From: Patescibacteria group bacterium | GTDB taxonomy: Bacteria; Patescibacteriota; Microgenomatia; Daviesbacterales; UBA10151 | Assembly (NCBI GenBank): GCA_038064895.1 | Contig: JBBTSA010000010.1 | Span: forward strand, 182,616 to 246,615 | Length of the DNA stretch: 64,000 bases | Reading direction: 5' to 3' | Shown: positions 1 through 50,414 of the stretch, one piece after another | Layout of the letters: each line of letters begins with the position of its first letter | Position numbering within the stretch: the first letter of the stretch is position 1 | Program-made: the position numbers and the translations under genes | The notes under the pieces: generated by a model | Database searches by the model: none | Told to the model about the DNA's origin: nothing | The model's input: the letters and a program-made list of their open reading frames with translations, nothing else

Positions 1-779
1 GATTTGGAAGAAAAATAATCGATCCATAAGACAGAAGGCCAATTATATGACAAGGGATACAAAATATTGGCCATATAGTACCAATTACTGGAAAGGGAGG
101 TGAATAAAACTCCAAAAAACCCCGCCCATGTATTTGACGTCAACTCTTTTACTAAAAGATAAGCTAAAGCAGAATACAAAATAATATAAAAAGGTCCGAT
201 AATTTGGAAAAATAGTTCCGGCACGGGTATTTTGGTTAGCAAATGTATTATTGCAAATTGCAAGTCTACAAAATAGTGATAACCCGTAAGTGATAAACCG
301 GAAAATGCCGGATTCTGTGGAGGAACACTATATTTTAGGTTGTTAATTAGGGCCAAATGCCAAGTGCTATCAAAGCCATGAGCCCCCGGCAGAGAAATAC
401 CCGTATTAGTAACTGTCCCGTAAGGAAATGTTATTATGCTATTTATTAGCAAACTTAAACCCACAGTAATAAATATTAAAACATTGATTTTTGAAATTCT
501 TAATTTAAGAATAGATAAAAATCCTTTTGTTTTAAAAATTACTCCCCAGATAACAAATGCCTGTAAAAACAAAAAAATTTGAAGATACTTATAAAGACCT
601 AAAAAACCTGCAATATACCCTTCTAAGGTTATTAACATAAGACCAAGAAATATACAAATAACAATTTTGCTAAAAAGGCTTGCAGCCGTTAAATTAATTA
701 GTGCAAAAATTATTCTTCCTGAAGGCAGGATAATAAAAAGAAGGAATGCAATAAAAATTAACCAGTATATAAGTATCAT
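1..779 (-). CDS. Polytopic membrane protein, 3'-truncated by the window edge. Third paralog of the 'HDG-W-H / PPxNPxF(A/S)G' family (see 24638-26650 and 26647-30129). Not in the supplied ORF track.
   Basis: Manual minus-strand translation from ATG (779-777) stays open to position 1: MILIYWLIFIAFLLF...LPGAHGFDSTWHLALINNLKYSVPPQNPAFSGLSLTGYHYFVDLQFAI... This matches '...SQGHDGIWHISLMGEIKKSLPPNNPTFAGEKLYNYHYLVDVL' in the 670-aa protein. ATGA overlap with the stop of the upstream GT2 gene. Confidence 0.5.
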   Translation of the reverse strand, partial: MILIYWLIFIAFLLFIILPSGRIIFALINLTAASLFSKIVICIFLGLMLITLEGYIAGFLGLYKYLQIFLFLQAFVIWGVIFKTKGFLSILKLRISKINVLIFITVGLSLLINSIITFPYGTVTNTGISLPGAHGFDSTWHLALINNLKYSVPPQNPAFSGLSLTGYHYFVDLQFAIIHLLTKIPVPELFFQIIGPFYIILYSALAYLLVKELTSNTWAGFFGVLFTSLSSNWYYMANILYPLSYNWPSVLWIDYFSSK

Positions 780-1582
780 CCAACGTTTATTCTAAAGTTT
801 AACTGCGGATCAAACCTCCATTTTCTTTTATTTTGATCTGAATAATACCTAATAATTTTGAGCCTATAAAAGATTGCCAATGTTTCCCAAAACATCCAAA
901 AAACAGTTTTTAAAAATTTTTGACTGGTAATTGTTGATGCTCCCCCAAAATGTAATCTAATATCCACTGGCGCTTCGTAGATTCTTTTAAAACCCAAATA
1001 ATTTGCAACACTTAGTATTTCCACATCAAATGCATAGGTTTTAACCAAAAGTCTTGGTAATACTTTTTCTAAAACTTCTCTTTTAAAAAATTTCATCCCT
1101 ACCTGTGTATCCCGCAGCTTAAAACCAAATAGTAATCTAACTAACACTTGATAACCTATTGAAAGTATTCTTCTTTGCCAAGGGTAGTCCACCTTAGAAA
1201 CCGGATGTCTTTTTGAACCAACAATGATATCAGCATTGTACCACTCAAAGTGTTCAAGTAGCATAGAAAGTCCGTTTGGATTCAAATCCATGCCGGCATC
1301 AATAAAACCAACTACGTCACCTTTACTTTCTGCCATACCGAAACGGACTGCATAACCCTTCCCTTTATTAGCTTCATATCCGATTACCATCACATTGGTA
1401 AAATTTTTGGCAAAGCTTAAGGCCCTATCTAATGTTTTATCTAATTTACCATCTATCACACAAATCAGTTCTGTAGGGTAACGAAGTTTATCTAAAACCT
1501 TTTTAATCCTTCCTAAATCCCTTACTATTGTTTCTTCCTGCCTATATGCCGGAACTATTACCGAGATAAGTTTTATCTCCAT
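776..1582 (-). CDS. GT2 glycosyltransferase, dolichyl/polyprenyl-phosphate sugar synthase (DPM1/ArnC)-like.
   Basis: N-terminus 'ISVIVPAYRQEETI', 'VIDGKLDKT' and 'DAGMD' (DxD-like) motifs typical of the GT-A fold. 268 aa. Confidence 0.75.
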   Translation of the reverse strand: MEIKLISVIVPAYRQEETIVRDLGRIKKVLDKLRYPTELICVIDGKLDKTLDRALSFAKNFTNVMVIGYEANKGKGYAVRFGMAESKGDVVGFIDAGMDLNPNGLSMLLEHFEWYNADIIVGSKRHPVSKVDYPWQRRILSIGYQVLVRLLFGFKLRDTQVGMKFFKREVLEKVLPRLLVKTYAFDVEILSVANYLGFKRIYEAPVDIRLHFGGASTITSQKFLKTVFWMFWETLAIFYRLKIIRYYSDQNKRKWRFDPQLNFRINVG

Positions 1583-2828
1583 AGGTAGAGTATATTATCA
1601 GAGCCATAAGTAGTAAAGCAGCTACTCCGGTTGAGGCCAAAATTATAATGAATAAACTTGGATGGAAAAACCAAATAATTATAATCTGAATAATTGCTGC
1701 GATGGCAGGAAAATAGACAACATTTATCCTACCGATAGAAAGATGTAGATTAATATAAAGGCAGCAGATAGTAAATATAGTAATAAAAAATCCATACCAT
1801 AATAAAAGTGGTGAAGCTTCTAAATAATCAGAATTTAGCATTCTGATTACAAATTCAGGCATGAGCCAGTAAATTATTAAAACTAAAAAAGAAATTAGAG
1901 AAGTTAATAATAAGCTTAAGAAAAATACTTTTTTATATTCTTTTCCTTTTGATTGTTTTTGTGAGATAAGCGGGAACATTACAGCACCAATAGGCGCTGT
2001 TCCAAAGAAAATGATTTTTCCTAAAGAAGAAATTACGGCATAAATTCCCGCATCATGGGGAGCAAAAAAATGCTTAATTAAAATAATATCTGTAGAATAC
2101 AAAGATGTAATTGAAATGGATTGAATGAGAACTGGGAATGAATAGTGAAGCATCTTTTTAACATTTGGAACTCTTAGTGATTTTTTTAAATAATTTTGAA
2201 TAAATAATCTGGAAAGGAAAAATCCAATTGACGAAGCAATTACTAAACCGGCTACCGCTCCGGCTACAGAGAAACCAATGTAGACGAAGAATATGCCTAA
2301 TAATAATTTAAAACTGCTTTCAGTAAAAAGACTAAAGATCATTTGAGGAAATTTTAAAAGTCCTTGAAGAACTGATTTATAAAGAAGCGCTGCCAAAGAA
2401 AATAAAAATGATACAGCAATCAAAATAATTATTAGTTTATTATCTATCTTTAAAAATGAAGAAATAAATGGAGAAAAAAGGGTAATCATTGTAAATATAA
2501 TCAGAGATAAAATAAAAACCCTAGCATTAAACCAGCTTACTAGATTTACTACTTCACTATCATTTTTTGCTGAGGAAACAAATTTAATAATTACGAGACT
2601 CAGTGAGGCAGGGGCAATTCCTAAAAGTCCAGTAAGTGATAGTAATGCTGCTAATTCCCCATAGCTGGGTGGTGTAAGGAATCTAATCATTACCAGATGA
2701 TATAAATAATTTAGAAAATTAACCAGATTACTACCAGCTATCATAACTATGCTCCCCGTAAGTAACGGATGAGAAAGTAAATTTAAAAATTCAAATTTAA
2801 AATTTAAAATTGTCCTCATGCTACCCAA
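1542..2828 (-). CDS. MOP-superfamily polysaccharide flippase (Wzx/Polysacc_synt-like).
   Basis: 428 aa, ~12 predicted TM helices, Wzx-like hydrophobic architecture. Lies within the glycosylation operon. Confidence 0.6.
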   Translation of the reverse strand: MGSMRTILNFKFEFLNLLSHPLLTGSIVMIAGSNLVNFLNYLYHLVMIRFLTPPSYGELAALLSLTGLLGIAPASLSLVIIKFVSSAKNDSEVVNLVSWFNARVFILSLIIFTMITLFSPFISSFLKIDNKLIIILIAVSFLFSLAALLYKSVLQGLLKFPQMIFSLFTESSFKLLLGIFFVYIGFSVAGAVAGLVIASSIGFFLSRLFIQNYLKKSLRVPNVKKMLHYSFPVLIQSISITSLYSTDIILIKHFFAPHDAGIYAVISSLGKIIFFGTAPIGAVMFPLISQKQSKGKEYKKVFFLSLLLTSLISFLVLIIYWLMPEFVIRMLNSDYLEASPLLLWYGFFITIFTICCLYINLHLSIGRINVVYFPAIAAIIQIIIIWFFHPSLFIIILASTGVAALLLMALIIYSTYGDKTYLGNSSGI

Positions 2829-3976
2829 TACCCCCTTAAAAACAGTACCGATTCTATAAATAAAAGAATAATTGATACGGATAAAATAATAACCTTTAAT
2901 ATGTTTGGTTTACTATTTAACCATATGGCAGCAGCCAGAAAGCTTGGAAAAAAAACGATAATATATCTGGGGGTCGAGGAAAAACTACCTTGAATAGTTG
3001 GCAGCAAAAACCCTACCATAGCATATATAAGATAGGAGAGACGTATTTTTTTAAAGAACCCGTAAATAGGAAGCAAGAAAAAAATAATTCCTAAACTAAA
3101 TTCCAAAAGAATTGTTTGATAGATCGGATTTTGCATATCAACAGTAAGTAACATCTTGATATAACGGAAATAAACTTGAGGTAAAAGAGTAATACCCGCG
3201 GTATGCTGTTCTCCAACAATTGTCTGTAGATTATAAAATGCTAAAGGATCATCGAATGTAAAGTACTGATATAACATGTACATTCCAAGCCCCACAGGAA
3301 TAAAAAATAACCAAAAGATGATCTTTCGGTACATCTTTTGTTGCCAAATCTCAACTAAAAAAGCAGGGAAAAGTATTATCCCAAAAACCCTTGTAGCAGA
3401 AGATAAAGCACCCAAAAATGATGATTTTAGAAGCATACCCTTTCTAAAAGTATAAAATGACAAAACCGAAAAAAGGAGAAAAAGAGATTCATTATATAAT
3501 GCTCCAAAATAAAAAGAGGTGGGAAAGATTAGAAGCAGAATGATCGTAAGATATGCTAAATTTTGGGAATAATCTATTCTTATAAGTTCCCAAAGTATAA
3601 CTAATGCAAAGAAAAAAGCTATATTGGATGTTAAAAGACCGGCCAAGATGGAAAAAACATTCGCTGAAAATAGATCATTATAAAAAGGTTTTGCGAAAAA
3701 AGATATTAGAGTCGGGTATACCGGAAAGAAGGCCTGTTCTAAAAATTTATATCCGTGGATTGAAATGGATAGATAATGCTCTCCGTCAAAATTTGCCCAG
3801 GAGAAAAATAAAGGCTCAAGATGATAATTTTGAGACCCTCCTCCCAGGAATCTATCTTTATTCATAAGAGGAACATTAGAAACAGCAAAAACGCCTGCCA
3901 ATGTTAAGAATATTCTCCAGGCTATAAATAAAGTAAGAATTATAAAAAGTGGATGTTTTGATAACTTAGCAATCAT
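2816..3976 (-). CDS. Polytopic membrane protein, GT-C-like (PIG-V/DUF2029/GT87-type mannosyltransferase-like).
   Basis: 386 aa, highly hydrophobic with ~10 TM helices and aromatic-rich loops. Family assignment is tentative. Confidence 0.35.
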   Translation of the reverse strand: MIAKLSKHPLFIILTLFIAWRIFLTLAGVFAVSNVPLMNKDRFLGGGSQNYHLEPLFFSWANFDGEHYLSISIHGYKFLEQAFFPVYPTLISFFAKPFYNDLFSANVFSILAGLLTSNIAFFFALVILWELIRIDYSQNLAYLTIILLLIFPTSFYFGALYNESLFLLFSVLSFYTFRKGMLLKSSFLGALSSATRVFGIILFPAFLVEIWQQKMYRKIIFWLFFIPVGLGMYMLYQYFTFDDPLAFYNLQTIVGEQHTAGITLLPQVYFRYIKMLLTVDMQNPIYQTILLEFSLGIIFFLLPIYGFFKKIRLSYLIYAMVGFLLPTIQGSFSSTPRYIIVFFPSFLAAAIWLNSKPNILKVIILSVSIILLFIESVLFLRGYWVA

Positions 3977-4031
3977 TTTTTAAGTTTTCCAGCAAATTTC
4001 TGGTATAATAACCAATTCCTCTTGTTGATTT

Positions 4032-4778
4032 TCATTTTCTAAAATCTATTAAATATTTAATGTATGCGACGGGAAATCTTAGAGATGAAAATAATGCAAA
4101 CAAAAAACCGGGAAAGCCATCCATAAAACCCTTATGCCTAATGTATGCTTTTATAAACCAGAAGCCGGGTTTTAAAAAAAAATAATCAAAAAAGGAGGGA
4201 TTATTAATCTGTACCGATAGAAAATCTGTGTATCTATTAAATCTTTCCATATATATTGAGAATGTTTTATCTCTCATATGCAATAAATCACTCCTAAAAT
4301 ACTCTACCTTACCTTTTACTTCTGCTTGCTCATGAACATCTTTGGCTGGAAACCTTCCAAAGCCTCTTTTGTAAAGCCTTAAAGTATAATCAGGGTATTG
4401 CCCGCCCTTTGTCAAAAACCTTCCTAAAAAGAAATTCTTTCTCGGAATCCAGAAACCCTCTATATTGCTTTTTCTTAAGATAACTTCTTCTATCTCCCGG
4501 ACTAATGCCTTTGTAACCACTTCGTCCGCGTCAAGCTGTAAAATCCACTCCCCCGCTGCCATATCAATTGCCTTATTTTTATTTATATGAAAATTAGCAG
4601 GATTGGTGGTTCGTATAATTTTGGCCCCAAAACTTTCGGCAATCTTTAAAGTATTGTCTTTGGAACCTCCATCTACTACAACAATCTCCCATGCAATATC
4701 CCTTACAGAATCCAGGCAATTCTTTAGATTGGCCTCTTCGTTATAAACAGCTAATACAACAGATAGTCTTTTCTTCAT
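4032..4778 (-). CDS. GT2 glycosyltransferase.
   Basis: 'LSVVLAVYNEEANL...VVVDGGSKDNT...QLDADE' is the GT2 signature with a DxD motif. Confidence 0.75.
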   Translation of the reverse strand: MKKRLSVVLAVYNEEANLKNCLDSVRDIAWEIVVVDGGSKDNTLKIAESFGAKIIRTTNPANFHINKNKAIDMAAGEWILQLDADEVVTKALVREIEEVILRKSNIEGFWIPRKNFFLGRFLTKGGQYPDYTLRLYKRGFGRFPAKDVHEQAEVKGKVEYFRSDLLHMRDKTFSIYMERFNRYTDFLSVQINNPSFFDYFFLKPGFWFIKAYIRHKGFMDGFPGFLFALFSSLRFPVAYIKYLIDFRK

Positions 4779-4914
4779 ACAGAAAGTCTATTACTTACAA
4801 TCTATCGCTAATAAGATAAAATGCAATTGTGCCATTAGGATAGTAGATAATCTTTTTAATATCAAATGATAATTTGTGTTCCTTAATATATTCTACTATT
4901 TGTTTCATACCATA

Positions 4915-6111
4915 CTACCATTCGATAGCATATCTTTTTGAATATTCCCCAAAGTAATGATTCAAATAATTCTTTAATGACAAGGCTAAAATAACAACGG
5001 TTACTGCAACCAATATGAACTTCAAGATGGGCTTACTTAGCAAACTGACAATAAAATAAAGACCCAGTGCAGAAATAATATGCCAACTTCCTATCATAAA
5101 AGAAGCTCTTGCTGCATGGGGTGCTTCTGCCACCAGAGCTGAAGAAAGTGGTGCAATCAGTGCCCAACTCAAAAGAATCATACTCTCTTTAGATCTTTTA
5201 TACAAAAGGTAAACTACCCCTAAAATTAGAAATAGAGCATCTAATTTATAAAATTCTCCTGTTTGAGAAGAAAGCCTTGGATTTTTATCACTCTGTATGA
5301 ATAAATATTGTGGGGAAAAGTGCCAACTATATTGAGTAAGAATCAATTTAATACGGCCAAACAATTTATTCTCTCCTCTTTGCACTGTTTGATTTATTCT
5401 GGCGATACCTAAAAGCTGAGGGTGAGAAATAAGTATCAATCCAAAAATTATCACCACAATCGATGATGATACTACTACCTTCTTATTTTTAATAAAAGTT
5501 TTAATCCTGTTGAAATAGAGAGTTATTAAAACAAAAATCACCATTGGGACTACCACCTTGGATGGATGGTATGTTAGAAAACAAATTGCAAAACTGCTTA
5601 TAGATAAAGGTAGTAATTTTTGAGTTTTTTTAAATGAAACATAGAATAAAATTAACCCGGCCATAAAAAAGAATGAAGCAAAATTAGCTTCGTGGCTAAA
5701 ACGGGAAAAATGAATATTATATGGAGAAATTGCTAAAAAAAATGCCGCAATCAATCCTAAAAATTCACTTTTAAACATTATTCTAGCCAGAAAAAATATA
5801 AGTAACACATTCAAAACCCCAAAAACAGAAGAAGGAAATCTGGTACTAAATTCGGAAAGTCCGAGTAGTTTTATAGAAAGGGCGGTAAAATATACATGAA
5901 CCGGATGTTTATCGTCAGCAAAAGAGCGAAAATAGAAGGGGAAAGATTTGCCATATTCGTCTTTTCCGAAATTGGCAATAGCCCATCCGTTATACCCTAC
6001 TGCCGCCTCATCCCAGGAGATTGAAGGAGGATGGGAGTCCAACTGATACACTCTAAGAGTAAGTGACAGGATTAAAATAAGAAAAAGGAGAATTTTAGTT
6101 AACCTTTGCAT
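4915..6111 (-). CDS. GT39/PMT/ArnT-like polyprenyl-phosphate-sugar-dependent GT-C glycosyltransferase (short member, 398 aa).
   Basis: 'SWDEAAVGYNGWAI' Asp-Glu first-loop motif, '...FGKDEYGKSFPF', and the conserved C-terminal 'HFSPQYLFIQSDKNPR' module. Starts immediately after the stop of the next array member. Confidence 0.65.
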   Translation of the reverse strand: MQRLTKILLFLILILSLTLRVYQLDSHPPSISWDEAAVGYNGWAIANFGKDEYGKSFPFYFRSFADDKHPVHVYFTALSIKLLGLSEFSTRFPSSVFGVLNVLLIFFLARIMFKSEFLGLIAAFFLAISPYNIHFSRFSHEANFASFFFMAGLILFYVSFKKTQKLLPLSISSFAICFLTYHPSKVVVPMVIFVLITLYFNRIKTFIKNKKVVVSSSIVVIIFGLILISHPQLLGIARINQTVQRGENKLFGRIKLILTQYSWHFSPQYLFIQSDKNPRLSSQTGEFYKLDALFLILGVVYLLYKRSKESMILLSWALIAPLSSALVAEAPHAARASFMIGSWHIISALGLYFIVSLLSKPILKFILVAVTVVILALSLKNYLNHYFGEYSKRYAIEW

Positions 6112-7509: not shown

Positions 7510-7524
7510 AATTTGATAACCTAA

Positions 7525-11529: not shown

Positions 11530-11640
11530 TTTAAGTTATGCAAAATTATATTAACTCTCCAGTATGTAAAGATCAATGAACTTAGCAATCAAGAAAAATA
11601 TTACTAAGCAATGAAATTTTAAAAATATCATATTTTAAAA

Positions 11641-16272: not shown

Positions 16273-16280
16273 TATTTCCT

Positions 16281-19254: not shown

Positions 19255-19259
19255 ATTTG

Positions 19260-33292: not shown

Positions 33293-33294
33293 GT

Positions 33295-39734: not shown

Positions 39735-39741
39735 CCTACTA

Positions 39742-40852: not shown

Positions 40853-40855
40853 TTT

Positions 40856-43000: not shown

Positions 43001-43022
43001 GGTAATATGCTAACATCAAATT

Positions 43023-44171: not shown

Positions 44172-44172
44172 T

Positions 44173-45357
44173 CTAATCCTCTTGATGTCTCCAGGTTACT
44201 AAATGATTCACCATAAAATTCCAAATCATAACAGGTGGGATTGTTGCAAAGAAATAAAAATTATTATATGCAATCTTTCTCCATCCCAGATCCACAAATC
44301 CATCTCCATAAGTTAAATGTAAAAATTTAACTATCAATACCCCTATTATTAGACCTCCTAGACTGACCAAGTTGAAAATTCCAAGCTTTTGCCAAAAAGA
44401 GGTTTTGGTTTTTCTGTATCTGAAAGTCCAAAAATTATTCAATATAAAATTATTTACAATCGCAATCTCTGTTGAAATCCCTTTTGATGTTGCAGGAGGA
44501 AAACCTAAAGCATTTATAAAAACTTTGTAAAAGAAAAAGTCAACCAGAGTACCTGTAAATCCAACAAGCCCGAATTTAACAGGGGTTTTGGCTCTTCTGC
44601 TTATCTTAAATAGAGGTATCTTTATTCCCAACTGTTTAAATTTTGCATCAAGACAGTATGTAATTACATCATAAGTATAGTTGAAAACTTTATTTTTGGA
44701 ATATCCCTCAAGACGGTTTTTGAAAATTAAGGGAACCTCTTTATATTTTGCGCCGGATAAAATTGCCTCATGTAAAAAAGCAGGCTGCACTATAAAAGTC
44801 TTTTCTCTCCAAGGAAGCCTATGTAAGTTAATCTTTTTGAAAAGTGCAGGGGTAAAAGCTCTTGCCGAATTTGTAAACTCTTTTATGTCGGACGGACCCA
44901 TTACAACCCTGCAAAAGGCTGATGCACCATAAGTAAAAAGTCTACGCCCGAAAGTAAGCTGATTTTTCCCACCCTCTACAAACCTTGAACCAATAGCCAG
45001 GGTGTAACCTTCCTCTATTGCTTTTATAAGCCTTACTAAAACATCCGGAACAACCTGTCCGTCTGCATCAAGTTGGGCAAGTATATTGGGTTTAAGTTTC
45101 TCTATAGAATATTTGTGTCCTAAAATAAGCCCTGCTCCCAAACCAGGATCTACTTTGAGAAGATGGATTCTTTTATTTTTACTTACCAAACCTCTTACAA
45201 TCTCATCGGTTCCATCAGAAGTCCTGATATCATCGCAAACAACTATATGAATTTCATATCCTTCCAAAATCTTTGCTTGCTCTAAAACTTTTTCAATGGT
45301 TTGGGCAATATTTGCTCTTTCGTTAAAGGTGGGTAAAACTACCGATACTATCTTCAT
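44173..45357 (-). CDS. GT2 (DPM1-like) fused to a C-terminal GtrA-like membrane domain.
   Basis: 'VSVVLPTFNERANI...HIVVCDD...QLDADGQ'. C-terminus 'GLVGFTGTLVDFFFYKVFINALG...IVNNFILNNFWTFR' carries the GtrA signature. Confidence 0.7.
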   Translation of the reverse strand: MKIVSVVLPTFNERANIAQTIEKVLEQAKILEGYEIHIVVCDDIRTSDGTDEIVRGLVSKNKRIHLLKVDPGLGAGLILGHKYSIEKLKPNILAQLDADGQVVPDVLVRLIKAIEEGYTLAIGSRFVEGGKNQLTFGRRLFTYGASAFCRVVMGPSDIKEFTNSARAFTPALFKKINLHRLPWREKTFIVQPAFLHEAILSGAKYKEVPLIFKNRLEGYSKNKVFNYTYDVITYCLDAKFKQLGIKIPLFKISRRAKTPVKFGLVGFTGTLVDFFFYKVFINALGFPPATSKGISTEIAIVNNFILNNFWTFRYRKTKTSFWQKLGIFNLVSLGGLIIGVLIVKFLHLTYGDGFVDLGWRKIAYNNFYFFATIPPVMIWNFMVNHLVTWRHQED

Positions 45358-46373
45358 CAGGAAAACTTTGCAAGATCCGAGTGAACCATAACTTTCACTA
45401 AATCCTTAAATTTAGTCTTTGGCTCCCATCCTAAAACTTTTTTGGCCTTCGAGGCATCCCCGCATAGCGGACCTGTTTGTACAGGAGGAATAAAATGAGG
45501 GTCTGTCACAACAAAATCTTTCCAGTCTAAATTAACAACAGAGAAAGCTTGTTCTGCAAATTCTTTAACGCTGTGAGTTTCACCTGTTGCTATAACAAAA
45601 TCATCAGGTTTATCTTGTTGCAACATCATCCACATAGCTTCAACATAATCGGGCGCATATCCCCAATCCCTTTTTGCATCCAAGTCCCCAAGCTTTAACT
45701 TACCGTTTTTTACAATCGGCTCGCCTATTTCATTTAAAGGTATCTCTTCTTTTTTACCGTTTTTAATACAGGCAACTGCTGCAGTTATTTTTCTTGTAAC
45801 AAAATTTAAACCCCTTCTTGGGCTTTCATGATTAAATAAAATCCCGCAGGAAATAAATTGTGGACTCTTGCGATCCGATCTTGCAATTTGCGCCATTCTG
45901 TGAGCAAACTCTTTGGAAGCAGCATAAGGATTCGTAGGATTAAAAGGGGTATCTTCATTTTGCGGACTTTGTTTTGGTATACCAAACATTTCCGATGTGG
46001 ATGCCTGATAGATTTTTGCATCCGGAACAATCTGTTTTGCCCGTTCAAATACATGAAGAGCTCCAACACCTGTTATCATAATTGATGCAAATTTGTCCGT
46101 AAAAGATCCCAAAGGCGAAGATAAAGAAGCAAGATTATAAATCTCACCGGGCTTAAAATCCAAAAGTGCAAGTGCTATGGATTCGGGAGATTGCAGGTCA
46201 CCATAATATATCTTTACCTCTTCTTTAATCTCGTCAATGTTTCCAAGATCGGAAACAGCAGTTCGTCTAACTAACCCTGCAACTTCATATCCTTTACCCA
46301 ATAAAAACTCCGTCAGGTATGAGCCGTCCTGACCCGAGATTCCTGTTATGAATGCCCTTTTGTTACTTGCCAT
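45357..46373 (-). CDS. gmd: GDP-mannose 4,6-dehydratase.
   Basis: 'KRAFITGISGQDGSYLTEFLLGKGYEVAGLVRR' and 'YAASKEFAH' (YxxxK) match the Gmd N-terminus. C-terminal 'DASKAKKVLGWEPK'. Confidence 0.8.
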   Translation of the reverse strand: MASNKRAFITGISGQDGSYLTEFLLGKGYEVAGLVRRTAVSDLGNIDEIKEEVKIYYGDLQSPESIALALLDFKPGEIYNLASLSSPLGSFTDKFASIMITGVGALHVFERAKQIVPDAKIYQASTSEMFGIPKQSPQNEDTPFNPTNPYAASKEFAHRMAQIARSDRKSPQFISCGILFNHESPRRGLNFVTRKITAAVACIKNGKKEEIPLNEIGEPIVKNGKLKLGDLDAKRDWGYAPDYVEAMWMMLQQDKPDDFVIATGETHSVKEFAEQAFSVVNLDWKDFVVTDPHFIPPVQTGPLCGDASKAKKVLGWEPKTKFKDLVKVMVHSDLAKFS

Positions 46374-46399
46374 AATCTTTTGTTACTATACCTAATTCT

Positions 46400-47287
46400 C
46401 TAATCCTTTTCAATCTCCTGTCTAAAAACTTTAATATTTTCTTCAACTGTTGCTAAAATCCCATCTCCAAACTCCCTAATAAACTTGGTGGGATCAAGCC
46501 ACGAGTACTTAAGTATTGGAGCCTTTTTATCTTTGTTGTATTCATCCAAAGTAATAGGCTCTACTAAAGATGCGTCTAAATTAAATTCTTTTGCCAAAAG
46601 TTTTGCAAACTCAAAAGGGGTAGTCCAATTTGTCGATACAACATGAAATAATCCCGGTGGCCTTTTTTTAATAATGGCAAACAAAGCATTAGCTACATAT
46701 TCAACAAAAATGGGAGTTACTCTTGCATCCGATATTGCTTTTATCTTACGGTTACGGTTTAATTGCTCCAGGAAAAATCTTGCAATATCCTTTTTTAATT
46801 CGTAGTGCGGGCTAAAAGGCATTGCAATCCGAACTATACTAAACTTACAACCGCTATTTAAAACTTCCTGCTCTGCAAAATATTTTGTTTGCCCGTACCA
46901 ATTTTTAGGATCAGGCGTATCCTCTTCCGTATACGGTGCATCCGATTTCGTACCGTTGAAAACGTAATCTGTAGATATGTGAATTAAATAAACACCTTTT
47001 TTACTGCAAGCATCTGCAATATTTTTTGCGCCCCTGACATTAATCAGGTAACAGAGTCCACTCCTACCTCCTTTCTGCTCTTCAGCCCCCTGCACATTTG
47101 TAAATGCTGCGAAATTAACAGTGACATCAGGTCTAAAATCTTCTAAAGCTAAGTCAAGTTGATCTTTATTTAATATATCAACCTCATTAATAAGAGGGGC
47201 TTTTATTAGAAACTTACTCCTATAAATTTTGATAAAATGGGAACCAACTAAGCCGCTCCCTCCAAAAACCAGCAGTCTAGTTTCCAT
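46400..47287 (-). CDS. rmlD: dTDP-4-dehydrorhamnose reductase.
   Basis: 'LLVFGGSGLVGSH...FRPDVTVNFAAFT...HISTDYVFNGTK...YGQTKYFAE' resembles the RmlD substrate-binding family. Adjacent to rmlC and rmlB. Confidence 0.75.
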   Translation of the reverse strand: METRLLVFGGSGLVGSHFIKIYRSKFLIKAPLINEVDILNKDQLDLALEDFRPDVTVNFAAFTNVQGAEEQKGGRSGLCYLINVRGAKNIADACSKKGVYLIHISTDYVFNGTKSDAPYTEEDTPDPKNWYGQTKYFAEQEVLNSGCKFSIVRIAMPFSPHYELKKDIARFFLEQLNRNRKIKAISDARVTPIFVEYVANALFAIIKKRPPGLFHVVSTNWTTPFEFAKLLAKEFNLDASLVEPITLDEYNKDKKAPILKYSWLDPTKFIREFGDGILATVEENIKVFRQEIEKD

Positions 47288-47835
47288 TATTTGAATCTCT
47301 TCGGGAATAGGTCTCTAAGATAAGGATTCTTTCTATCCCTTTGTGAAATAATTGGATTGGAAATAGGCCATTTTATTGCTAAATCCGGATCATCCCAGGC
47401 AATGGCCCTGGTATCACGACCATCCCAGTAAGCATCCACTAAATATGCATAATCTACTCCTTTTTCTCCTGTGACACAAAAAGAATTAGCAAGTCCAATC
47501 GGTACAAAAAGTCCTATCCTCCTTTCATCATTAATTTTAAAAGTTTCTACCTTGGCAAAGGTAGAGGAGTTTTCTCTTAAATCAACTATTGCAATAAATA
47601 CTTCTCCGGAAAGCGGATAAATAATTTTGTTCCACTCCTCGGCGTGAATACCTCTAATTACTCCGGGGATGGAATAAGAATGATTCATTTGCACCGGTTC
47701 AAACTTTATGCCTAAGAAATTTTCCAAATCATCTTTTCGAAACAATTCTCTAAAAAAACCTCTCTTATCTTTAAAGATCGGTCTTTCTAAAATTAAAAGT
47801 CCGTCAATTGAAGTTTTTTTAATAAAATCTGCCAT
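47287..47835 (-). CDS. rmlC: dTDP-4-dehydrorhamnose 3,5-epimerase.
   Basis: 'IDGLLILERPIFKDKRGFFRELF...IRGIHAE', cupin RmlC signature. 182 aa. Confidence 0.8.
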   Translation of the reverse strand: MADFIKKTSIDGLLILERPIFKDKRGFFRELFRKDDLENFLGIKFEPVQMNHSYSIPGVIRGIHAEEWNKIIYPLSGEVFIAIVDLRENSSTFAKVETFKINDERRIGLFVPIGLANSFCVTGEKGVDYAYLVDAYWDGRDTRAIAWDDPDLAIKWPISNPIISQRDRKNPYLRDLFPKRFK

Positions 47836-47836
47836 C

Positions 47837-48841
47837 TTAGCCTTTGTATGACTTTTGCGCTACTCTGTCAACATTTGGCCTGCCTTTTTTTAAAGGCTTC
47901 CACCACCACGCATTCTTTTTATACCACCTAACAGTTTCTAAAAGCCACTCATCAAATGGATGTGCCGGCTGCCAGCCTAAACTCTTAAGTTTACGATCGT
48001 CTATAGCATATCTAAAATCATGACCTAATCTGTGTCCCACATTTTCTATCCAGGACTCATCTTTTTCTAAAATCTTAAGAATTTTTTTTGCAACTTCTAT
48101 ATTTGTTTTTTCCTCCCCGCCAACACAGTAAGTTTCTCCCAACTCACCTTTTTGTAAAACCGTATCTATTGCCCTTGAGTGATCATCAACATATAGCCAG
48201 TCCCTGATATTTTCTCCTTCACCCATAAGTGGTACTTTTTTACCTTCAAGCAAATTTGTAATAAAACGGGGGATAAGTTTCTCGATATCCTGATAAGGAC
48301 CAAAATTATTTGAACAGTTTGTAATAGTGATCGGTAAACCGTAAGTTTGGTAATATGATCTTACTAAATGATCCGATCCTGCCTTTGAAGCAGAGTATGG
48401 AGTTCGGGGTGAATATGGGGTATTTTCATTAAATGGAGGATCTTTCGGACCTAATTGTCCAAATACTTCATCTGTTGATATATGATGAAATCTTTTTACT
48501 TTTGTATCCAAGGCAGCGTTTAGTAAAACCGCAGTACCTAAAACATTTGTTCTTACAAACTGCAGGGGATCAATGATTGACCTATCAACATGTGATTCTG
48601 CCGCAAAGTGAACAACTAAGTCCATACCTTCCATAGCTTTTCCAACAAATGCCTCATCACAAATATCTCCTTTAATAAAACTATAGTTTGGATTAGTCTT
48701 AAGATCCTTAAGACTTTCCAAATGTCCGGCATATGTTAATGCATCCAGGTTAACAATTTGATCTTGAGGATGATACTCCAACCAGTAATGGATAAAATTA
48801 GATCCAATAAATCCGGCTCCGCCTGTCACTAAAATTTTCAT
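47837..48841 (-). CDS. rmlB: dTDP-glucose 4,6-dehydratase.
   Basis: 'MKILVTGGAGFIGSNFIHYWL...NLDALTYAG...YSASKAGSDHLVRSY'. Confidence 0.8.
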   Translation of the reverse strand: MKILVTGGAGFIGSNFIHYWLEYHPQDQIVNLDALTYAGHLESLKDLKTNPNYSFIKGDICDEAFVGKAMEGMDLVVHFAAESHVDRSIIDPLQFVRTNVLGTAVLLNAALDTKVKRFHHISTDEVFGQLGPKDPPFNENTPYSPRTPYSASKAGSDHLVRSYYQTYGLPITITNCSNNFGPYQDIEKLIPRFITNLLEGKKVPLMGEGENIRDWLYVDDHSRAIDTVLQKGELGETYCVGGEEKTNIEVAKKILKILEKDESWIENVGHRLGHDFRYAIDDRKLKSLGWQPAHPFDEWLLETVRWYKKNAWWWKPLKKGRPNVDRVAQKSYKG

Positions 48842-48908
48842 GCAATAAATTTTATCATATATGTTGAGTATTTGACCTAAATAATAGCATAATAACCTAA
48901 GTTAAGTT

Positions 48909-50414
48909 ATGAGAAAGAACTTAAAACTTATTTTAATCATTTTAATTATAGGAGCGGTATATAGATTAAGTCTTACCTCAAACGGTAATTTTCTTTTTAA
49001 CATGGATAACGCGCGGGATATGGTTGATGTTAGAGAAATGGTTGAGACTTCTAAATTAAGATTAATTGGCCCAACCTCGGCAATTGAAGGCTTTTATAAT
49101 GGGCCGGCCTGGTATTATCTTTTGGCAATTCCATATATTTTATCTGGCGGTGATCCTTATGCATCAATCCTTATGGAAATTGCTCTTTGGGCTTTGGGAG
49201 GTTTTTTCTTAATATTTTTGGTTAAAGATTTTGGGAAGTTGGCAGCAGTTTCTGCCGGCTCTTTATGGATTTTATCAAACTATGTAGTTTTAACAACCTC
49301 ATATGCGTTTAACCCAAATCCAATTCTTTTCCTAACACCTCTTTTTATATTTTTTTTAAAGAAATACTTGGAAACTGAAAAGTTAGTTTTCTCTTTAGGG
49401 ATATTTTTATTGGCAGGATTATTTTTTAACTTTGAGATGAACTTTGGAGTATTTATACCCCTAGTTTTAATTTTTTCTGTATTTTTATCTGGAAAAAGAA
49501 ATATTTTTAAGAGTAAAAATTTCTGGCTGGGAGTTTTTATTTATCTCCTAACTTTAATGCCTCAAGTTGCCTTTGATATAAAACATAACTTTATAATGTC
49601 TAAATCTGTTATCAAATATTTAAGTGCAGGTAGCCCTGATCAAATAATTAACCCAATTAAAAGATTACCCTTAATTTCTGAGAAGTTTTTTAATGTTACC
49701 GTTCCAACGTTTATGAATCATCAATTTTTTACAAAATTACTGACTTATATTTTTTTTATGTCTTTGTACCTTTTCATTAAAAGAGGACATTGGAATAAGA
49801 ATTTAACAGTTTTAATTACATTACTTTATATACTCATACCATTCTTGGGGTATGTACTACTTCCCACAACTGTTAATCCTTGGCATTTAGGGGGAGTTGT
49901 TGCTGCAATAATTTTACTTTTTAATCTGCAATTTTTAGGAAGGCTTCCTACCTTGATTTTGTCTATTTTTGTCATCTATTTTGCTTTGATAAATATCAAT
50001 AACTATTTTAAAGAAAGGAGTATTCCAAGTAACGACCCATCAGTTTATAAAAATGAAGTTGCGGCAATAGATTATGTTTACAAAAAAGCAGAAGGTAAAA
50101 ATTTTAGTGTCTATACATATCTCCCTTCTGTTTACGATTATCCATATCAGTATTTATTTTGGTGGTATGGTAAAAAAACCTATGGATATATTCCCGGAGA
50201 ATATGTATATTCTCCAAACAAACCTCAATATATACCAAGCCAGGATAAATTCCAGGGATCTAAGAAAAATTACTCGGGTTTGGTTTTTTTAATTAAAGAA
50301 CCGGACAGAATTAAAATGAGACAAGCTTGGGAAAATGATTATAAAGATATGGAATTTATTTCCAAAGAAATGATTGGACCAATAGAGGTAGAGATTAGGA
50401 AAGAGAAGATGTAA
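48909..50414 (+). CDS. ArnT/PMT-like GT-C membrane glycosyltransferase, same subfamily as the C-terminus of 40856-43000.
   Basis: 'FNMDNARDMVDVREMVE...GPAWYYLLAIPYIL...FNPNPILFLTPLFIFF', multi-TM plus a C-terminal soluble domain. Confidence 0.55.
   Translation: MRKNLKLILIILIIGAVYRLSLTSNGNFLFNMDNARDMVDVREMVETSKLRLIGPTSAIEGFYNGPAWYYLLAIPYILSGGDPYASILMEIALWALGGFFLIFLVKDFGKLAAVSAGSLWILSNYVVLTTSYAFNPNPILFLTPLFIFFLKKYLETEKLVFSLGIFLLAGLFFNFEMNFGVFIPLVLIFSVFLSGKRNIFKSKNFWLGVFIYLLTLMPQVAFDIKHNFIMSKSVIKYLSAGSPDQIINPIKRLPLISEKFFNVTVPTFMNHQFFTKLLTYIFFMSLYLFIKRGHWNKNLTVLITLLYILIPFLGYVLLPTTVNPWHLGGVVAAIILLFNLQFLGRLPTLILSIFVIYFALININNYFKERSIPSNDPSVYKNEVAAIDYVYKKAEGKNFSVYTYLPSVYDYPYQYLFWWYGKKTYGYIPGEYVYSPNKPQYIPSQDKFQGSKKNYSGLVFLIKEPDRIKMRQAWENDYKDMEFISKEMIGPIEVEIRKEKM

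Follow-up and report, generated by a model that had tools for sequence, protein, structure and literature searches.

An operon-like supercluster of membrane glycosyltransferases in a Daviesbacteria-like bacterium and its probable role in envelope glycan assembly

Multi-component transmembrane glycosylation systems combine a GT-A C55-P-sugar synthase, a flippase and a GT-C glycosyltransferase (PMC8035078). PMT_2 and YfhO are among their GT-C families, the Wzx-type flippase GacK is an alternative to GtrA in such systems, and three GT-A/GT-C pairs each are present in Listeria, B. subtilis and L. lactis (PMC8035078). The same combination of GT2 synthase, flippase and GT-C is found in a membrane-glycosyltransferase cluster of at least 53 kb, or ~5% of a ~1-Mb genome, which we analysed in a 64-kb stretch of DNA (the window). 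The host is a tiny-genome, Daviesbacteria-like groundwater bacterium of the Candidate Phyla Radiation; it is a member of the Patescibacteria/CPR whose nearest relatives are Candidatus Daviesbacteria. Gene families were assigned by Pfam and NCBIfam profile searches, and transmembrane (TM) segments were counted from hydrophobic segments. The features are as follows (strand after the coordinates; E-values after family names; L numbers denote related loci):

1-779, minus: F670-family GT-C, third paralogue, 5' part (~259 codons of 641 aa), running off the window
776-1582, minus: GT2 group I, resembling polyprenyl-phosphate sugar synthases (Glycos_transf_2 2e-22; NCBIfam matches including PgfS, PpgS and ArnC, all under cut-off); paralogue of 40103-40852
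1542-2828, minus: Wzx-like (MOP family) flippase (Polysacc_synt_3 4e-21, Polysacc_synt 2e-17; ~11 hydrophobic segments)
2816-3976, minus: GT-C, PIG-V-like (Mannosyl_trans2, PF04188 1.6e-11, 44.6 bits vs cut-off 22.4)
4032-4778, minus: GT2 group II, soluble, generic (Glycos_transf_2 4e-24; best NCBIfam matches arsenosugar GT and SunS families)
4915-6111, minus: GT-C, PMT_2 (3e-14; loop-1 'WDE' motif)
6112-7509, minus: GT-C, PMT/PMT_2 (PMT_2 1e-9, PMT 1e-8; 'WDE' motif)
7525-9207, minus: GT-C, divergent PMT_2 paralogue (BLAST 9e-46 to 9874-11529; 'PDE' motif; no Pfam match at E<=0.01, PMT_2 E=0.019)
9197-9874, minus: 225-aa membrane protein with ~5 TM segments, outside the glycan classes
9874-11529, minus: GT-C, PMT/PMT_2 (PMT 1.6e-10; orthologues in L009, L014 and L049 at 64-74% identity)
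11641-13263, minus: GT-C, PMT_2 (7e-13)
13251-14810, minus: GT-C, PMT_2 (3.6e-7, 31 bits)
14800-16272, minus: GT-C, PMT_2 (3.6e-8; the clear best match, at a median of 49% identity, of 11 ORFs from related loci)
16281-17387, minus: GT-C, PIG-M/GT87-like (Mannosyl_trans 1e-6, 29.4 bits vs cut-off 23.4; GT87 5e-5; orthologues in 29 related loci)
17384-18454, minus: GT4 (GT-B fold), cytoplasmic (Glycos_transf_1 4e-21; orthologues in 30 loci, median identity 61%)
18451-19254, minus: GT2 group II (Glycos_transf_2 2.5e-18; nearest PDB sequences GmaR 1e-19, SunS 1e-9; orthologues in 31 loci, median identity 64%)
19260-20150, minus: GT2 group II (Glycos_transf_2 1.5e-19; orthologues in 32 loci)
20190-22556, plus: GT-C, YfhO family, accessory (YfhO 1.2e-16, 60.7 bits)
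22553-23028, minus: what is left, after frameshift and truncation, of a gene whose intact versions in relatives encode a ~390-aa membrane protein; two small hydrophobic ORFs correspond to residues ~5-160 of 390-400-aa ORFs (L010, L014, L017-L020)
23028-24641, minus: GT-C, PMT_2 (1.6e-9; 19 loci have an orthologue, at a median identity of 60% and usually right behind the 670-aa gene)
24638-26650, minus: F670, a 670-aa GT-C of a family lacking a Pfam model; fold nearest oligosaccharyltransferases
26647-30129, minus: F1160, a 1160-aa fusion of signal anchor, hydrolase/deacetylase-like barrel, beta-domain and F670-type GT-C
30122-31582, minus: Wzx-like flippase, partner of F1160/F670 (Polysacc_synt_3 5e-51)
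31586-33292, minus: GT-C, PTPS_related paralogue 1 (PF10131 3e-10; loop-1 'HHDD' motif; clear best match of 21 ORFs in related loci)
33295-34959, minus: GT-C, PTPS_related paralogue 2 (PF10131 2e-6; 'SDE' motif)
34931-36595, minus: GT-C, PTPS_related paralogue 3 (PF10131 0.0046, under cut-off; 40% identity with paralogue 4)
36573-38249, minus: GT-C, PTPS_related paralogue 4 (PF10131 1.6e-8; same-region cross-matches to YfhO and PMT_2)
38256-39734, minus: GT-C, PMT_2 (3e-10; L009 orthologue at 72% identity)
40103-40852, minus: GT2 group I, polyprenyl-phosphate glycosyltransferase type (NCBIfam PgfS 1e-23)
40856-43000, minus: fusion of GT2 group I (N-terminal, Glycos_transf_2 1.7e-27) and PMT_2 GT-C (C-terminal, 2e-11)
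43023-44171, plus: probable GT-C, weak PMT_2 (2e-5, 25.3 bits vs cut-off 26.1; ~10 TM segments; L050 and L051 have proteins of 379 and 381 aa at the corresponding position)
44173-45357, minus: DPMS-type polyprenyl-phosphate sugar synthase, GT2 plus GtrA-like TM domain (Glycos_transf_2 2e-20, GtrA_DPMS_TM 1e-19)
45357-46373, minus: gmd, GDP-mannose 4,6-dehydratase (PF16363 2e-97; TIGR01472 3e-96, 322.6 bits, under the 415 cut-off)
46400-47287, minus: rmlD-like dTDP-4-dehydrorhamnose reductase (RmlD_sub_bind 7e-59; TIGR01214 4.5e-54, under cut-off)
47287-47835, minus: rmlC-like 3,5-epimerase (PF00908 4e-45; TIGR01221 2e-40, under cut-off)
47837-48841, minus: rmlB, dTDP-glucose 4,6-dehydratase (TIGR01181 6e-136, 452.6 bits vs cut-off 365.1)
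48909-50414, plus: GT-C, PMT_2 (1e-7, 32.7 bits)
59178-59906, plus: rmlA-like glucose-1-phosphate thymidylyltransferase (NTP_transferase 1e-56; TIGR01207 2e-73, under cut-off)
59907-60833, plus: galE, UDP-glucose 4-epimerase (TIGR01179 5.5e-84, 281.8 bits vs cut-off 262.3)
61763-63238, plus: probable additional GT-C outside 776-50414 (PMT_2 0.0016; BLAST 1.6e-11 to the PMT_2 half of 40856-43000; ~10 TM segments)

Between positions 776 and 50414, 34 of 35 genes belong to glycan-assembly classes, the exception being the 5-TM protein at 9197-9874, for which Pfam and NCBIfam searches gave no match and whose weak orthologues adjoin PMT_2 genes in L013 and L049. Pfam, paralogy and predicted structure together identify 21 GT-C genes of six families: ten proteins lie above the Pfam gathering cut-off for PMT/PMT_2 (one as the C-terminal half of 40856-43000), two are placed with PMT_2 by paralogy or a sub-threshold match (7525-9207 and 43023-44171), four are PTPS_related (31586-38249), the YfhO, PIG-V-like and PIG-M/GT87-like families have one member each, and F670 and F1160, which have no Pfam match, were recognized by predicted structure. 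Sub-threshold matches and paralogy make GT-C status probable for 43023-44171 and 61763-63238. The same interval encodes seven GT2 domains (one fused to PMT_2), one GT4, two Wzx-like proteins (Polysacc_synt_3), gmd and rmlD/C/B, with rmlA and galE further on; the matches of rmlA, rmlC, rmlD and gmd all lie under NCBIfam equivalog cut-offs. In 10 of 13 PMT_2 paralogues an acidic D-E/E-E pair is retained where loop 1 starts, and in all four PTPS paralogues loop 1 keeps a D-D or D-E, motifs by which the GT-Cs are likely to be active enzymes. The earlier note, which had counted at least 20 GT-Cs from five or six families among almost exclusively glycan-assembly genes and listed the accompanying classes, was accurate on all these numbers. 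Its ~50-kb cluster is real but larger: the left edge of the window is overrun by at least 3 kb in L003, which is identical to the window there and whose 641-aa product (L003:10804-12729, no Pfam match, ~14 hydrophobic segments) carries the F670/F1160 family motif 'DSTWHLAL..PPQNP..GYHYFVD' and is followed by a GT4; the PMT_2-like gene at 61763-63238 adds to the other side. Coding density is 97.6%, with 15 overlapping gene pairs and only two gaps above 140 bp, and from this packing and overlap we propose that the cluster forms one co-expressed, operon-like unit.

The note had taken all seven GT2s for polyprenyl-phosphate sugar synthases, which is apt for only four: these (the group I GT2s and 44173-45357) are of the DPMS/GtrB/ArnC type, while the other three (group II) are generic soluble GT2s with GmaR and SunS as nearest solved relatives. 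One donor synthase carries a GtrA-like membrane domain and another a GT-C domain. The former, 44173-45357, has as its sole PDB sequence match the P. furiosus dolichol-phosphate mannose synthase (5mlz, 2e-26, residues 4-344, including the TM region), and no other gene in the cluster is as well conserved: among the matches listed are 119 orthologues at 73-88% identity. The latter, 40856-43000 (Glycos_transf_2 at residues 7-168, PMT_2 at 298-454; NCBIfam ArnC 1e-18 and Agl23 TIGR03663 5.5e-11), recurs as the same fusion in L050 and L051. The nearest PDB sequences of 40103-40852 are GtrB (5ekp, 1.4e-19), DPMS (5mlz, 4e-15) and ArnC (1.6e-14). The interval between this gene and 38256-39734 is an insertion hotspot; the window has an MsrB remnant here, and L051 carries LexA, restriction-modification, NYN and AhpC-type genes. 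As four donor synthases stand against more than 21 GT-Cs, the latter would share donors and differ in acceptors or linkages. Such sharing of few donors by many GT-Cs is like that of the ALG mannosyltransferases of the ER lumen and of the mycobacterial lipomannan/arabinan enzymes.

The F670 model (pLDDT 89.9) has GT-Cs as all of its top 19 Foldseek matches. Its invariant D137 lies in the first helix (134-150) of a two-helix loop, a position like that described for the GT-C_A catalytic base (PMC13503287); on the model, the helix preceding this loop is taken to be the canonical GT-C TM1. This residue, too, suggests an active enzyme. F1160 comprises a signal anchor, an extracytoplasmic barrel plus beta-domain (~27-457) and a GT-C module (~490-1160), of which residues 498-1158 share 32% identity with F670. 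Its AF2 model is of only moderate confidence (pLDDT 70.4, pTM 0.58); as for F670, the Foldseek matches of the GT-C module are GT-Cs (STT3, AftA, DPY19 and PglB), and the outer domain matches 3lm3, a 'glycoside hydrolase/deacetylase' (1e-7), and CE4 deacetylases. Orthologues of F1160 carry PF12979/DUF3863. Of the 35 related loci with a Wzx gene, 34 have it immediately beside a member of the F670/F1160 family.

Forty-three related loci in Daviesbacteria, Shapirobacteria and Woesebacteria share the gene order PTPS x2-4 > Wzx > F1160 > F670 > PMT_2 > GT2 > GT2 > GT4 > GT87 > PMT_2, with Wzx > F1160 > F670 in the same order in 28 of them. In full-length related loci the median is 9 GT-C genes per 22 kb, and the same families cover 90% of their bases. 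A density of this kind is unusual among bacteria in general, as the earlier note held, but within the host's lineage it is the rule, not the exception, and 'hyper-expanded' fits poorly a cluster that is real, old and common to relatives. Each paralogue can be paired one-to-one with orthologues that are 50-74% identical to it, while paralogues within the genome share at most 40%; the duplications are thus ancient, predating the clade, with each copy kept, and this pattern speaks for a fixed multi-step pathway that has seen modest gain and loss, not for rapid shuffling. A clear single best paralogue (best/second bit-score >=1.5) was obtained for 57 of 77 PTPS, 81 of 132 PMT_2, 77 of 87 F670 and 66 of 70 group II GT2 ORFs, and the FtsEX/PcsB/RF housekeeping flank is conserved. 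Gain and loss, which the note had suggested seeking by comparative genomics, is modest on this core order: PTPS copies vary from 1 to 4, additional F670 copies occur in L008, L019, L020, L038 and L044, and YfhO, the best match of ORFs in 16 related loci, is present, absent or differently placed on either strand. At the right end of the window a ~12-kb inversion relative to relatives parts rmlA from rmlBCD; in L050 and L051 rmlA directly precedes rmlB.

We consider it probable (about 60%) that this operon-like chromosomal supercluster is a multi-step assembly line for a complex envelope glycan, with most of its steps at the outer surface of the cell membrane. The gene families, folds, acidic loop-1 motifs, synteny and paralogue age behind this view are shown above; the donors, acceptors and step order, and a single product shared by all the enzymes, we infer as follows. 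Gmd, RmlABCD and GalE would supply GDP-6-deoxyhexose, dTDP-rhamnose and UDP-hexose, from which the GT4 and the three generic GT2s would assemble a lipid-linked primer in the cytoplasm, to be carried across the membrane by a Wzx-type flippase. The four DPMS/GtrB/ArnC-type GT2s would load polyprenyl phosphate with single sugars, and each of the more than 20 GT-Cs of six families would draw on these lipid donors to attach a single sugar in a single linkage. The Wzx, F1160 and F670 trio may handle the flipped intermediate: the deacetylase/hydrolase-like outer domain of F1160 might trim or modify it, and the oligosaccharyltransferase-like GT-Cs F670 and F1160 might polymerise it or hand it to the final acceptor, giving a cell-surface heteropolysaccharide, lipoglycan or glycoprotein glycan. 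Pfam searches of the 64-kb window revealed no WecA/WbaP-type priming phosphoglycosyltransferase, Wzy-type polymerase, chain-length regulator or LCP-type ligase, so the start and end of the line are missing or encoded elsewhere.

Proteins can also be direct substrates of PMT-family enzymes, and the YfhO of Firmicutes decorates teichoic acids. The cluster could accordingly be a set of parallel, independent decoration systems in which each GT-C or small group modifies its own acceptor via a lipid-linked sugar, the PMT-like enzymes O-glycosylating surface proteins such as pili or S-layer, YfhO decorating a teichoic-acid-like polymer and the PIG-M/PIG-V/GT87-like enzymes mannosylating a glycolipid on scavenged lipid. 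The characterised acceptors of the six GT-C families do differ in other organisms, Firmicutes keep separate GT-A/GT-C pairs per target (PMC8035078), YfhO is accessory and missing or elsewhere in many relatives, and the GT2-PMT_2 fusion resembles a self-contained donor-plus-transfer unit. Yet only four donor synthases serve all these GT-Cs, the genes are tight, co-directional and overlapping, gene order and the identity of each paralogue are maintained throughout the clade, and cytoplasmic GT2s, GT4, Wzx and sugar-nucleotide genes lie in one block, as expected of one polymer pathway; we regard separate systems as possible but rather doubtful.

A fast-evolving, combinatorially variable surface-antigen locus, with paralogues shuffled for host specificity or phage evasion, appears improbable. 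It would draw on the changing numbers of PTPS and F670 copies, the mobility of YfhO, the decayed GT-C-like gene at 22553-23028, the insertion hotspot and the right-end inversion, but the retained trio order, the clear best paralogues, the conserved flank and the lack of recent duplicates argue against it, and no phase-variation or long homopolymer tracts, invertible elements or repeats, integrases or tRNA genes were found in the window. Least credible by far is that the proteins are unrelated permeases or transporters, or the locus a chimera of collapsed paralogues. Pfam matches are indeed weak or absent for 7525-9207, 24638-26650, 26647-30129, 34931-36595, 43023-44171 and 61763-63238; nevertheless Pfam and predicted structures, the checks proposed in the note, place the proteins as GT-Cs, GT2s, flippases and sugar-nucleotide enzymes, and a permease identity is rejected. 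A chimera is likewise rejected: no paralogue pair in the window exceeds 40% amino-acid identity by BLAST, which argues that the assembly is neither collapsed nor chimeric. All DNA repeats are at most 74% identical, identity to independent assemblies is 99.8-100% over the three segments compared (1-11582, 39910-44003 and 43991-53763), and the junction of 48909-50414 with rmlB and TsaE is confirmed in three such assemblies.

The cluster appears to be vertically inherited and is better explained as a conserved assembly line of many steps than as a variable island. Of the 'very complex or combinatorially variable' glycan proposed earlier, variability is weakly supported, and a very complex surface glycan is what one would naturally infer as the product. 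The heavy investment that had been proposed is borne out, at least 53 kb being given to this cluster in a lineage whose relatives have single contigs of 1.02-1.15 Mb.

The window has a GC content of about 33% and contains 51 sizeable ORFs, all of which were scanned with Pfam profiles and selected ones also with NCBIfam profiles. The segment 776-50414 holds 35 genes, 34 of which can be assigned a role in glycan assembly. Its 21 polytopic GT-C proteins, every one with 7-18 hydrophobic segments in a crude hydropathy count, include ten proteins that match PMT/PMT_2 above the Pfam gathering score, two further members of that family recognized by paralogy or a near-threshold match (7525-9207 and 43023-44171), four tandem genes that match PTPS_related, and one gene each that matches YfhO, PIG-V (Mannosyl_trans2) and PIG-M/GT87. 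The same segment encodes seven GT2 domains, one of them joined to PMT_2 in the 714-aa product of 40856-43000, a single GT4, two Wzx-like (Polysacc_synt_3) proteins (5e-51 and 4e-21), and the sugar-nucleotide genes gmd, rmlD, rmlC and rmlB. RmlB passes its NCBIfam cut-off (452.6 vs 365.1); the best matches of RmlA (247 vs 360.7), RmlC (138.3 vs 155.8) and RmlD (183.5 vs 224.1) are clear and lie below theirs. The block is 97.6% coding and co-directional, with 15 overlapping gene pairs. By these scans and the hydropathy count, the gene inventory of the earlier note, which had described a lipid-linked glycosylation island of about 50 kb, is essentially exact. The features most often referred to below are:

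1-779, minus strand: start of a 641-aa protein with the motifs of the F670 family
9197-9874, minus strand: unannotated membrane protein of 225 aa with about 5 TM segments, amid PMT_2 genes, without a Pfam or NCBIfam match
24638-26650, minus strand: F670, a 670-aa GT-C of a family without a Pfam model
26647-30129, minus strand: F1160, a 1160-aa protein related to F670
30122-31582, minus strand: Wzx-like protein
31586-38249, minus strand: four tandem PTPS_related GT-C genes
59178-59906: rmlA
59907-60833: galE
61763-63238: weak PMT_2-like protein

The product of 9197-9874 has weak orthologues (24-34% identity) adjoining PMT_2 genes in two related loci (L013 and L049), and could be an accessory subunit or a flippase. 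A permissive Pfam scan (E<=5) returned nothing usable for this protein, for the N-terminal domain of F1160, or for three minus-strand ORFs of the housekeeping flank (50786-52012, 54787-55293 and 56460-57065; 408, 168 and 201 aa). The outlying PMT_2-like gene is flanked by genes for a CofE-like F420-0:gamma-glutamyl ligase (60796-61554, minus strand, 4e-35), which is convergent with galE and overlaps its 3' end by 38 bp, and for an NAD(P)H-hydrate dehydratase (63206-63898, minus strand, 5e-52).

The earlier note had considered that the locus might be an assembly chimera of collapsed paralogues, or its proteins members of unrelated transporter or permease families. The first is rejected by the low similarity of the repeats and by independent assemblies: no pair of paralogues in the window exceeds 40% amino-acid identity, the DNA repeats are only 66-74% identical, and an independent ENA assembly and three Logan assemblies that derive from the same samples (groundwater of Hainich well H51, 0.1-um fraction) match 1-11582, 39910-44003 and 43991-53763 at 99.8-100%. 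The second is rejected by the fold searches, which returned GT-C proteins. An explanation by artefact or by transporters is accordingly very improbable. A contig of an independent assembly runs 2.5 kb past the left edge of the window, through the protein that starts in 1-779 and then a GT4 before the contig ends. The presence of this GT-C-family gene and of the GT4 means that the cluster extends over at least about 53 kb, a lower bound because the retrievable sequence ends there, short of the border.

The GT2 enzymes are of two kinds. The first comprises 776-1582, 40103-40852, the N-terminal half of 40856-43000, and 44173-45357, which by homology resemble polyprenyl-phosphate glycosyltransferases. 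The product of 44173-45357 contains a GtrA_DPMS_TM membrane domain (Pfam, 1e-19), and its sole match among PDB sequences is the Pyrococcus dolichol-phosphate mannose synthase (5mlz, 2e-26), which covers residues 4-344 and includes the TM domain. The product of 40103-40852 matches GtrB, DPMS and ArnC in the PDB, and the other two are paralogues of these synthases. The DPMS-type synthase 44173-45357 is the most conserved gene of the cluster, with 73-88% identity among the 119 orthologues listed. The second kind (4032-4778, 18451-19254 and 19260-20150) consists of small soluble proteins with generic best matches, whose closest solved relatives are GmaR and SunS. On the basis of these PDB and NCBIfam matches, the seven polyprenyl-phosphate sugar synthases proposed in the earlier note are reduced to four, the other three GT2s being generic and soluble.

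Enzymes of the GT-C_A class are integral to the membrane; their N-terminal TM module is conserved, their C-terminal one varies, and the catalytic base is an acidic residue that sits in the first helix of extracytoplasmic loop 1 (PMC13503287). The GT-Cs of the cluster display the same modular layout, and most of those aligned an acidic residue in the first loop. With positions taken from alignment and model secondary structure rather than superposition, loop 1 opens with an acidic D-E or E-E pair (WDE, GDE, HDE, QEE and similar) in 10 of the 13 aligned PMT_2-type domains, and a D-D or D-E pair lies just past TM1 in all four PTPS paralogues. Their co-location with DPMS/GtrB-type synthases suggests that they use isoprenoid-linked donors.

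F670 and F1160 share 32% identity across the whole of F670. Homologues of F670 number in the hundreds, with lengths of about 670 aa and 50-66% identity; all come from Patescibacteria and Daviesbacteria-type MAGs, and they are named in UniRef as [quoted passage not shown]. The family as a whole has 1786 cluster representatives (E<=1e-3) among 1.84 billion, with lengths of about 560, about 660 and about 1015-1160 aa. An AlphaFold2 model of F670 built from a 26-sequence alignment (pLDDT 89.9, pTM 0.91) displays an STT3-type membrane core and a C-terminal globular domain. In a Foldseek search of the PDB, 19 of 19 matches at E<1e-3 were GT-C proteins (DPY19, AglB, PglB, STT3, AftA, ArnT), and transporters reached a probability of at most 0.15. 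The closest structures are STT3B and AglB, with ALG12, ALG9, AftA, AftB, AftD and PimE also among the neighbours. As modelled, then, F670 is a GT-C whose closest structural neighbours are oligosaccharyltransferases, yet it lies outside that family: neither F670 nor F1160 matches the STT3 Pfam profile (PF02516), and a search of PDB sequences with the F670 family profile came up empty at E<=1. The WWDYG motif is absent from F670, whose 670 residues contain no WWD and only one WW (366-367, in the membrane region); the AWY.T motif conserved at 576-580 is no sequence equivalent of it. Since the versions of about 560 aa lack the first ~95 residues, which form three helices, F670 can be read as three extra N-terminal helices followed by a canonical GT-C core. 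On this reading its invariant D137 (helix 134-150) would lie in the first of the two helices of the first outer loop, the site of the catalytic base in GT-C_A enzymes.

The model of F1160 is of moderate confidence (pLDDT 70.4), and its C-terminal part structurally matches STT3, AftA, DPY19 and PglB. The N-terminal ~430 residues (~27-457), between a signal-anchor helix and the GT-C module, match the "glycoside hydrolase/deacetylase" (beta/alpha) barrel 3lm3 (E 1e-7, TM 0.52 normalized by target length) and also CE4 polysaccharide deacetylases, with a beta-rich domain following the barrel. PF12979/DUF3863 is found in the N-terminal region of many F1160 orthologues. From the predicted topology this domain should face outward. 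We know of no described fusion of a deacetylase-like domain to a GT-C.

The surroundings of F670 orthologues (+/-10 kb) were collected from three loci by exact protein look-up and from 41 loci by using one genome per GTDB species, and their ORFs were compared with the window proteins by BLAST. The related loci carry titles such as Candidatus Daviesbacteria, Shapirobacteria, Woesebacteria and "Microgenomates group". Others, from bulk-submitted MAGs (L009, L012, L013, L015-L019, L023-L027, L032, L034, L036-L039, L042-L045), are titled "uncultured Gammaproteobacteria", "Pseudomonadales", "Bathyarchaeia archaeon", "Clostridia" or "Spirochaetia"; these are syntenic with the Daviesbacteria/Microgenomates loci at 40-66% protein identity, and their titles look like placeholder or wrong taxonomy. 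The median number of GT-C genes in full-length related loci is 9, and the same families cover 90% of the bases there. The order retained is PTPS (two to four copies), Wzx, F1160, F670, PMT_2, in some cases YfhO, two GT2s, GT4, the GT87-like gene and PMT_2. Wzx directly adjoins a gene of the F670/F1160 family in 34 of the 35 loci that possess it, and the co-directional trio Wzx-F1160-F670 occurs in 28 of 43. The window paralogues have orthologues in relatives at 50-74% identity, including four PTPS genes in the window order at 55-61% identity in L014, and most ORFs of the related loci have one clearly best window paralogue; the duplications therefore predate the clade, and every copy has been kept.

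Gene order in the right half of the cluster is shared with L050 and L051, two loci around orthologues of the DPMS-type synthase: rmlA-B-C-D, gmd, the DPMS-type GT2, a reverse-strand PMT_2-like gene, the GT2-PMT_2 fusion, GT2, PMT_2 and PTPS. One of these loci is contiguous with L014, and both abut the same housekeeping genes (TsaD-like fragment, CAP, RF, FtsE, FtsX and M23/PcsB). The cluster is a stable chromosomal locus and not a mobile island, a notion that finds no support given this conserved flank, the absence of tRNA genes from the window and the lack of Pfam matches to integrases or transposases. The GC content is about 0.29-0.38 in the cluster against 0.34-0.40 in the flank, a small difference that probably reflects membrane-protein composition. 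No structured RNAs were detected in the window with Rfam.

Within the flank, L050 and L051 have ORFs of 147 aa where the window has 54787-55293, between FtsE and RF. An ORF of about 100 aa (57812-58126, plus strand), just downstream of one for a retropepsin-like aspartyl protease (57402-57815), matches only positions 30-82 of the 264-position TsaD profile. A similarly short gene is conserved beside the CAP-domain protein in both related loci (L050:4110-4412 and L051:5210-5512), and 57812-58126 probably encodes a genuine short TsaD/TsaB-like protein and not just a fragment.

The cluster also varies and decays in places. A locus may carry one to four PTPS copies, some genomes have additional F670 copies, and YfhO may be present or absent and on either strand. 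In a 471-bp gap beside the YfhO gene lie two small hydrophobic ORFs (22553-23028, minus strand; 91 and 95 aa) matching residues ~5-160 of a membrane protein of about 390 aa that is intact at the equivalent site in L010, L014 and L017-L020; this is a decayed gene remnant. The 368-bp gap between 38256-39734 and 40103-40852 contains two overlapping frames (39742-40126, plus strand) with the MsrB signatures GCGWPSF and [12 protein letters not shown]...RHCVNS, and looks like a frameshifted or truncated remnant of methionine sulfoxide reductase B. Its sequence is the same in the independent assembly L002, and the corresponding gap in L050 is only 38 bp. At the position of 39735-40102, between GT2 and the next PMT_2 gene, L051 has an insertion (15333-21059) that encodes a zinc-ribbon protein, a LexA-like repressor, an N6-methylase/Eco57I-type restriction-modification enzyme, a NYN nuclease, a Methylase_S-like protein and an AhpC/thioredoxin-fold protein. 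The site thus looks like a hotspot for insertions. Compared with L050 and L051, a block of about 12 kb (~48.9-60.8 kb: PMT_2, TsaE, an unannotated gene, M23/PcsB, FtsX, FtsE, RF, aspartyl protease, TsaD-like fragment, CAP, rmlA and galE) is inverted, which accounts for the separation of rmlA and galE from rmlBCD. The rmlB-PMT_2-TsaE junction is seen in three independent assemblies, and no inverted repeats of at least 40 nt were found at the breakpoints.

The closest known counterparts are the multi-component, or three-component, transmembrane glycosylation systems, which combine a GT-A C55-P-sugar synthase with a flippase (GtrA or Wzx type) and a PMT_2- or YfhO-family GT-C, with Gram-positive examples such as CsbB/GtcA/YfhO, GtlA/GtlB, L. 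lactis CsdAB/CD/EF and S. pyogenes GacI/J/K/L (PMC8035078). Judged from the genes, the parts list is the same here: polyprenyl-P-sugar GT2s, flippases (the fused GtrA_DPMS_TM domain and the two Wzx-like proteins) and the 21 polytopic GT-Cs, recognized by homology or predicted fold; and as in the streptococcal and lactococcal rhamnose polysaccharide loci, rhamnose genes and cytoplasmic GT2/GT4 enzymes are associated with them. Those systems, however, comprise one to three GT-A/GT-C pairs per genome, usually scattered and adding single side-chain sugars, whereas this cluster assembles more than 21 GT-Cs of six families and four synthases in one block that takes up at least 53 kb of a genome of about 1 Mb. 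Of its families, two lack a Pfam model, and it has fusions of GT2 to PMT_2 and of a deacetylase-like domain to a GT-C. The Wzx flippase recalls the Wzx/Wzy-dependent pathway, but no priming phosphoglycosyltransferase, Wzy polymerase, chain-length regulator or LCP-type ligase was detected among the 51 window ORFs (Pfam, E<=0.01); the priming transferase, Wzy and chain-length regulator could be encoded elsewhere on the 256,891-bp source contig. In the literature searched we found no description of GT-C clusters in Microgenomates or CPR, the nearest mention being a Saccharibacteria genome paper with a few mannosyltransferase genes (PMC6031116).

The reading we favor, with a probability of about 0.6, is that the enzymes form one extracytoplasmic line, working mostly on the outer side of the cell membrane, which assembles a complex envelope glycan in multiple steps; in it the conserved Wzx-F1160-F670 trio would handle the flipped intermediate. 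The general assignment to polyprenyl-P-sugar-dependent extracytoplasmic glycosylation, predicted from homology, is much more secure. What argues for the assembly line is the ratio of its parts, with four synthases against more than 21 GT-Cs of six families, and cytoplasmic GT2/GT4 enzymes, two Wzx proteins and sugar-nucleotide genes in the same block. Mycobacterial lipomannan and arabinan assembly likewise has few donors serving many transferases: there a GT-C network (Ppm1, PimE, MptA-C, EmbA-C, AftA-D and Pmt in mycobacteria and corynebacteria) uses polyprenyl-P-sugars to extend, on the outside of the membrane, a glycan anchored to lipid or linked to the wall; compared by gene number, the mycobacterial GT-Cs are spread over a roughly four times larger genome and belong mostly to other families (Emb/Aft). 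The cluster shares with that network the GT87-like member, and Arabinose_trans and Emb Pfam profiles find no match here. The ER-lumen ALG3/9/12 mannosyltransferases follow the same principle (PMC13503287). The ER lipid-linked-oligosaccharide pathway, made up of the ALG GT4/GT2 enzymes, Rft1, DPM1/ALG5, the lumenal GT-Cs ALG3/9/12/6/8/10 and STT3 (PMC13503287), runs from cytoplasmic Leloir transferases through a candidate MOP flippase, lipid-P-sugar GT2s and a paralogous GT-C_A series that uses one donor on differing acceptors to an STT3-type GT-C; the cluster shows the same logic, and it also contains PIG-M-like and PIG-V-like members. By sequence no cluster protein belongs to any ALG or STT3 family; compared with STT3/AglB/PglB (GT66), the F670 family has the three extra N-terminal TM helices and a paralogue with a deacetylase-like domain. 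Rft1 and Wzx belong to one superfamily. The main rival, a set of parallel and independent decoration systems, is a good deal less probable, the few donors and many transferases speaking for a joint pathway. Less plausible again is the combinatorially variable locus of the earlier note: copy numbers do differ between loci, but phase variation or an invertible switch is not supported, the homopolymers being limited to two A/T tracts of 9 nt and two G/C tracts of 7 nt, and the sole inverted repeat being one 40-nt pair at 70% within a gene.

A bolder proposal, which we regard as unlikely though somewhat less so than the variable locus, is that Microgenomates run a lipid-linked-oligosaccharide pathway like that of the ER or of archaea, with a cytoplasmic start, a Wzx flip, serial extension by paralogous GT-Cs using polyprenyl-P-sugars, and en-bloc transfer by the oligosaccharyltransferase-like F670/F1160. 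As this family lacks WWDYG, it would on such a reading recognize a different acceptor. Were it true, no more elaborate extracytoplasmic glycan assembly line would be known in bacteria, and both the transferase family and the enzyme that fuses a deacetylase to a GT-C would be new.

Systems of this kind are already known; the novelty lies in the size of this one and the clustering of its genes within a genome of about 1 Mb, in its conservation across a CPR lineage, and, as judged from the models, in an oligosaccharyltransferase-like GT-C family without a Pfam model and a deacetylase-GT-C fusion. For glycobiology the cluster offers a natural bacterial example of many paralogous GT-Cs sharing few donors, as in the ER ALG pathway, and handles for experiments in the conserved DPMS-type synthase, the oligosaccharyltransferase-like family (~1,800 cluster representatives) and the deacetylase-GT-C fusion. 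The genomes of CPR/Patescibacteria are tiny, and a life attached to other cells is presumed for these bacteria; to our knowledge, almost nothing is known of their surface chemistry. With roughly 5% of the genome given over to a single conserved cluster of lipid-donor-dependent transferases, the envelope glycan or glycoconjugate is predicted to be unusually elaborate and would be an obvious candidate for a role in host attachment, phage reception or envelope integrity.
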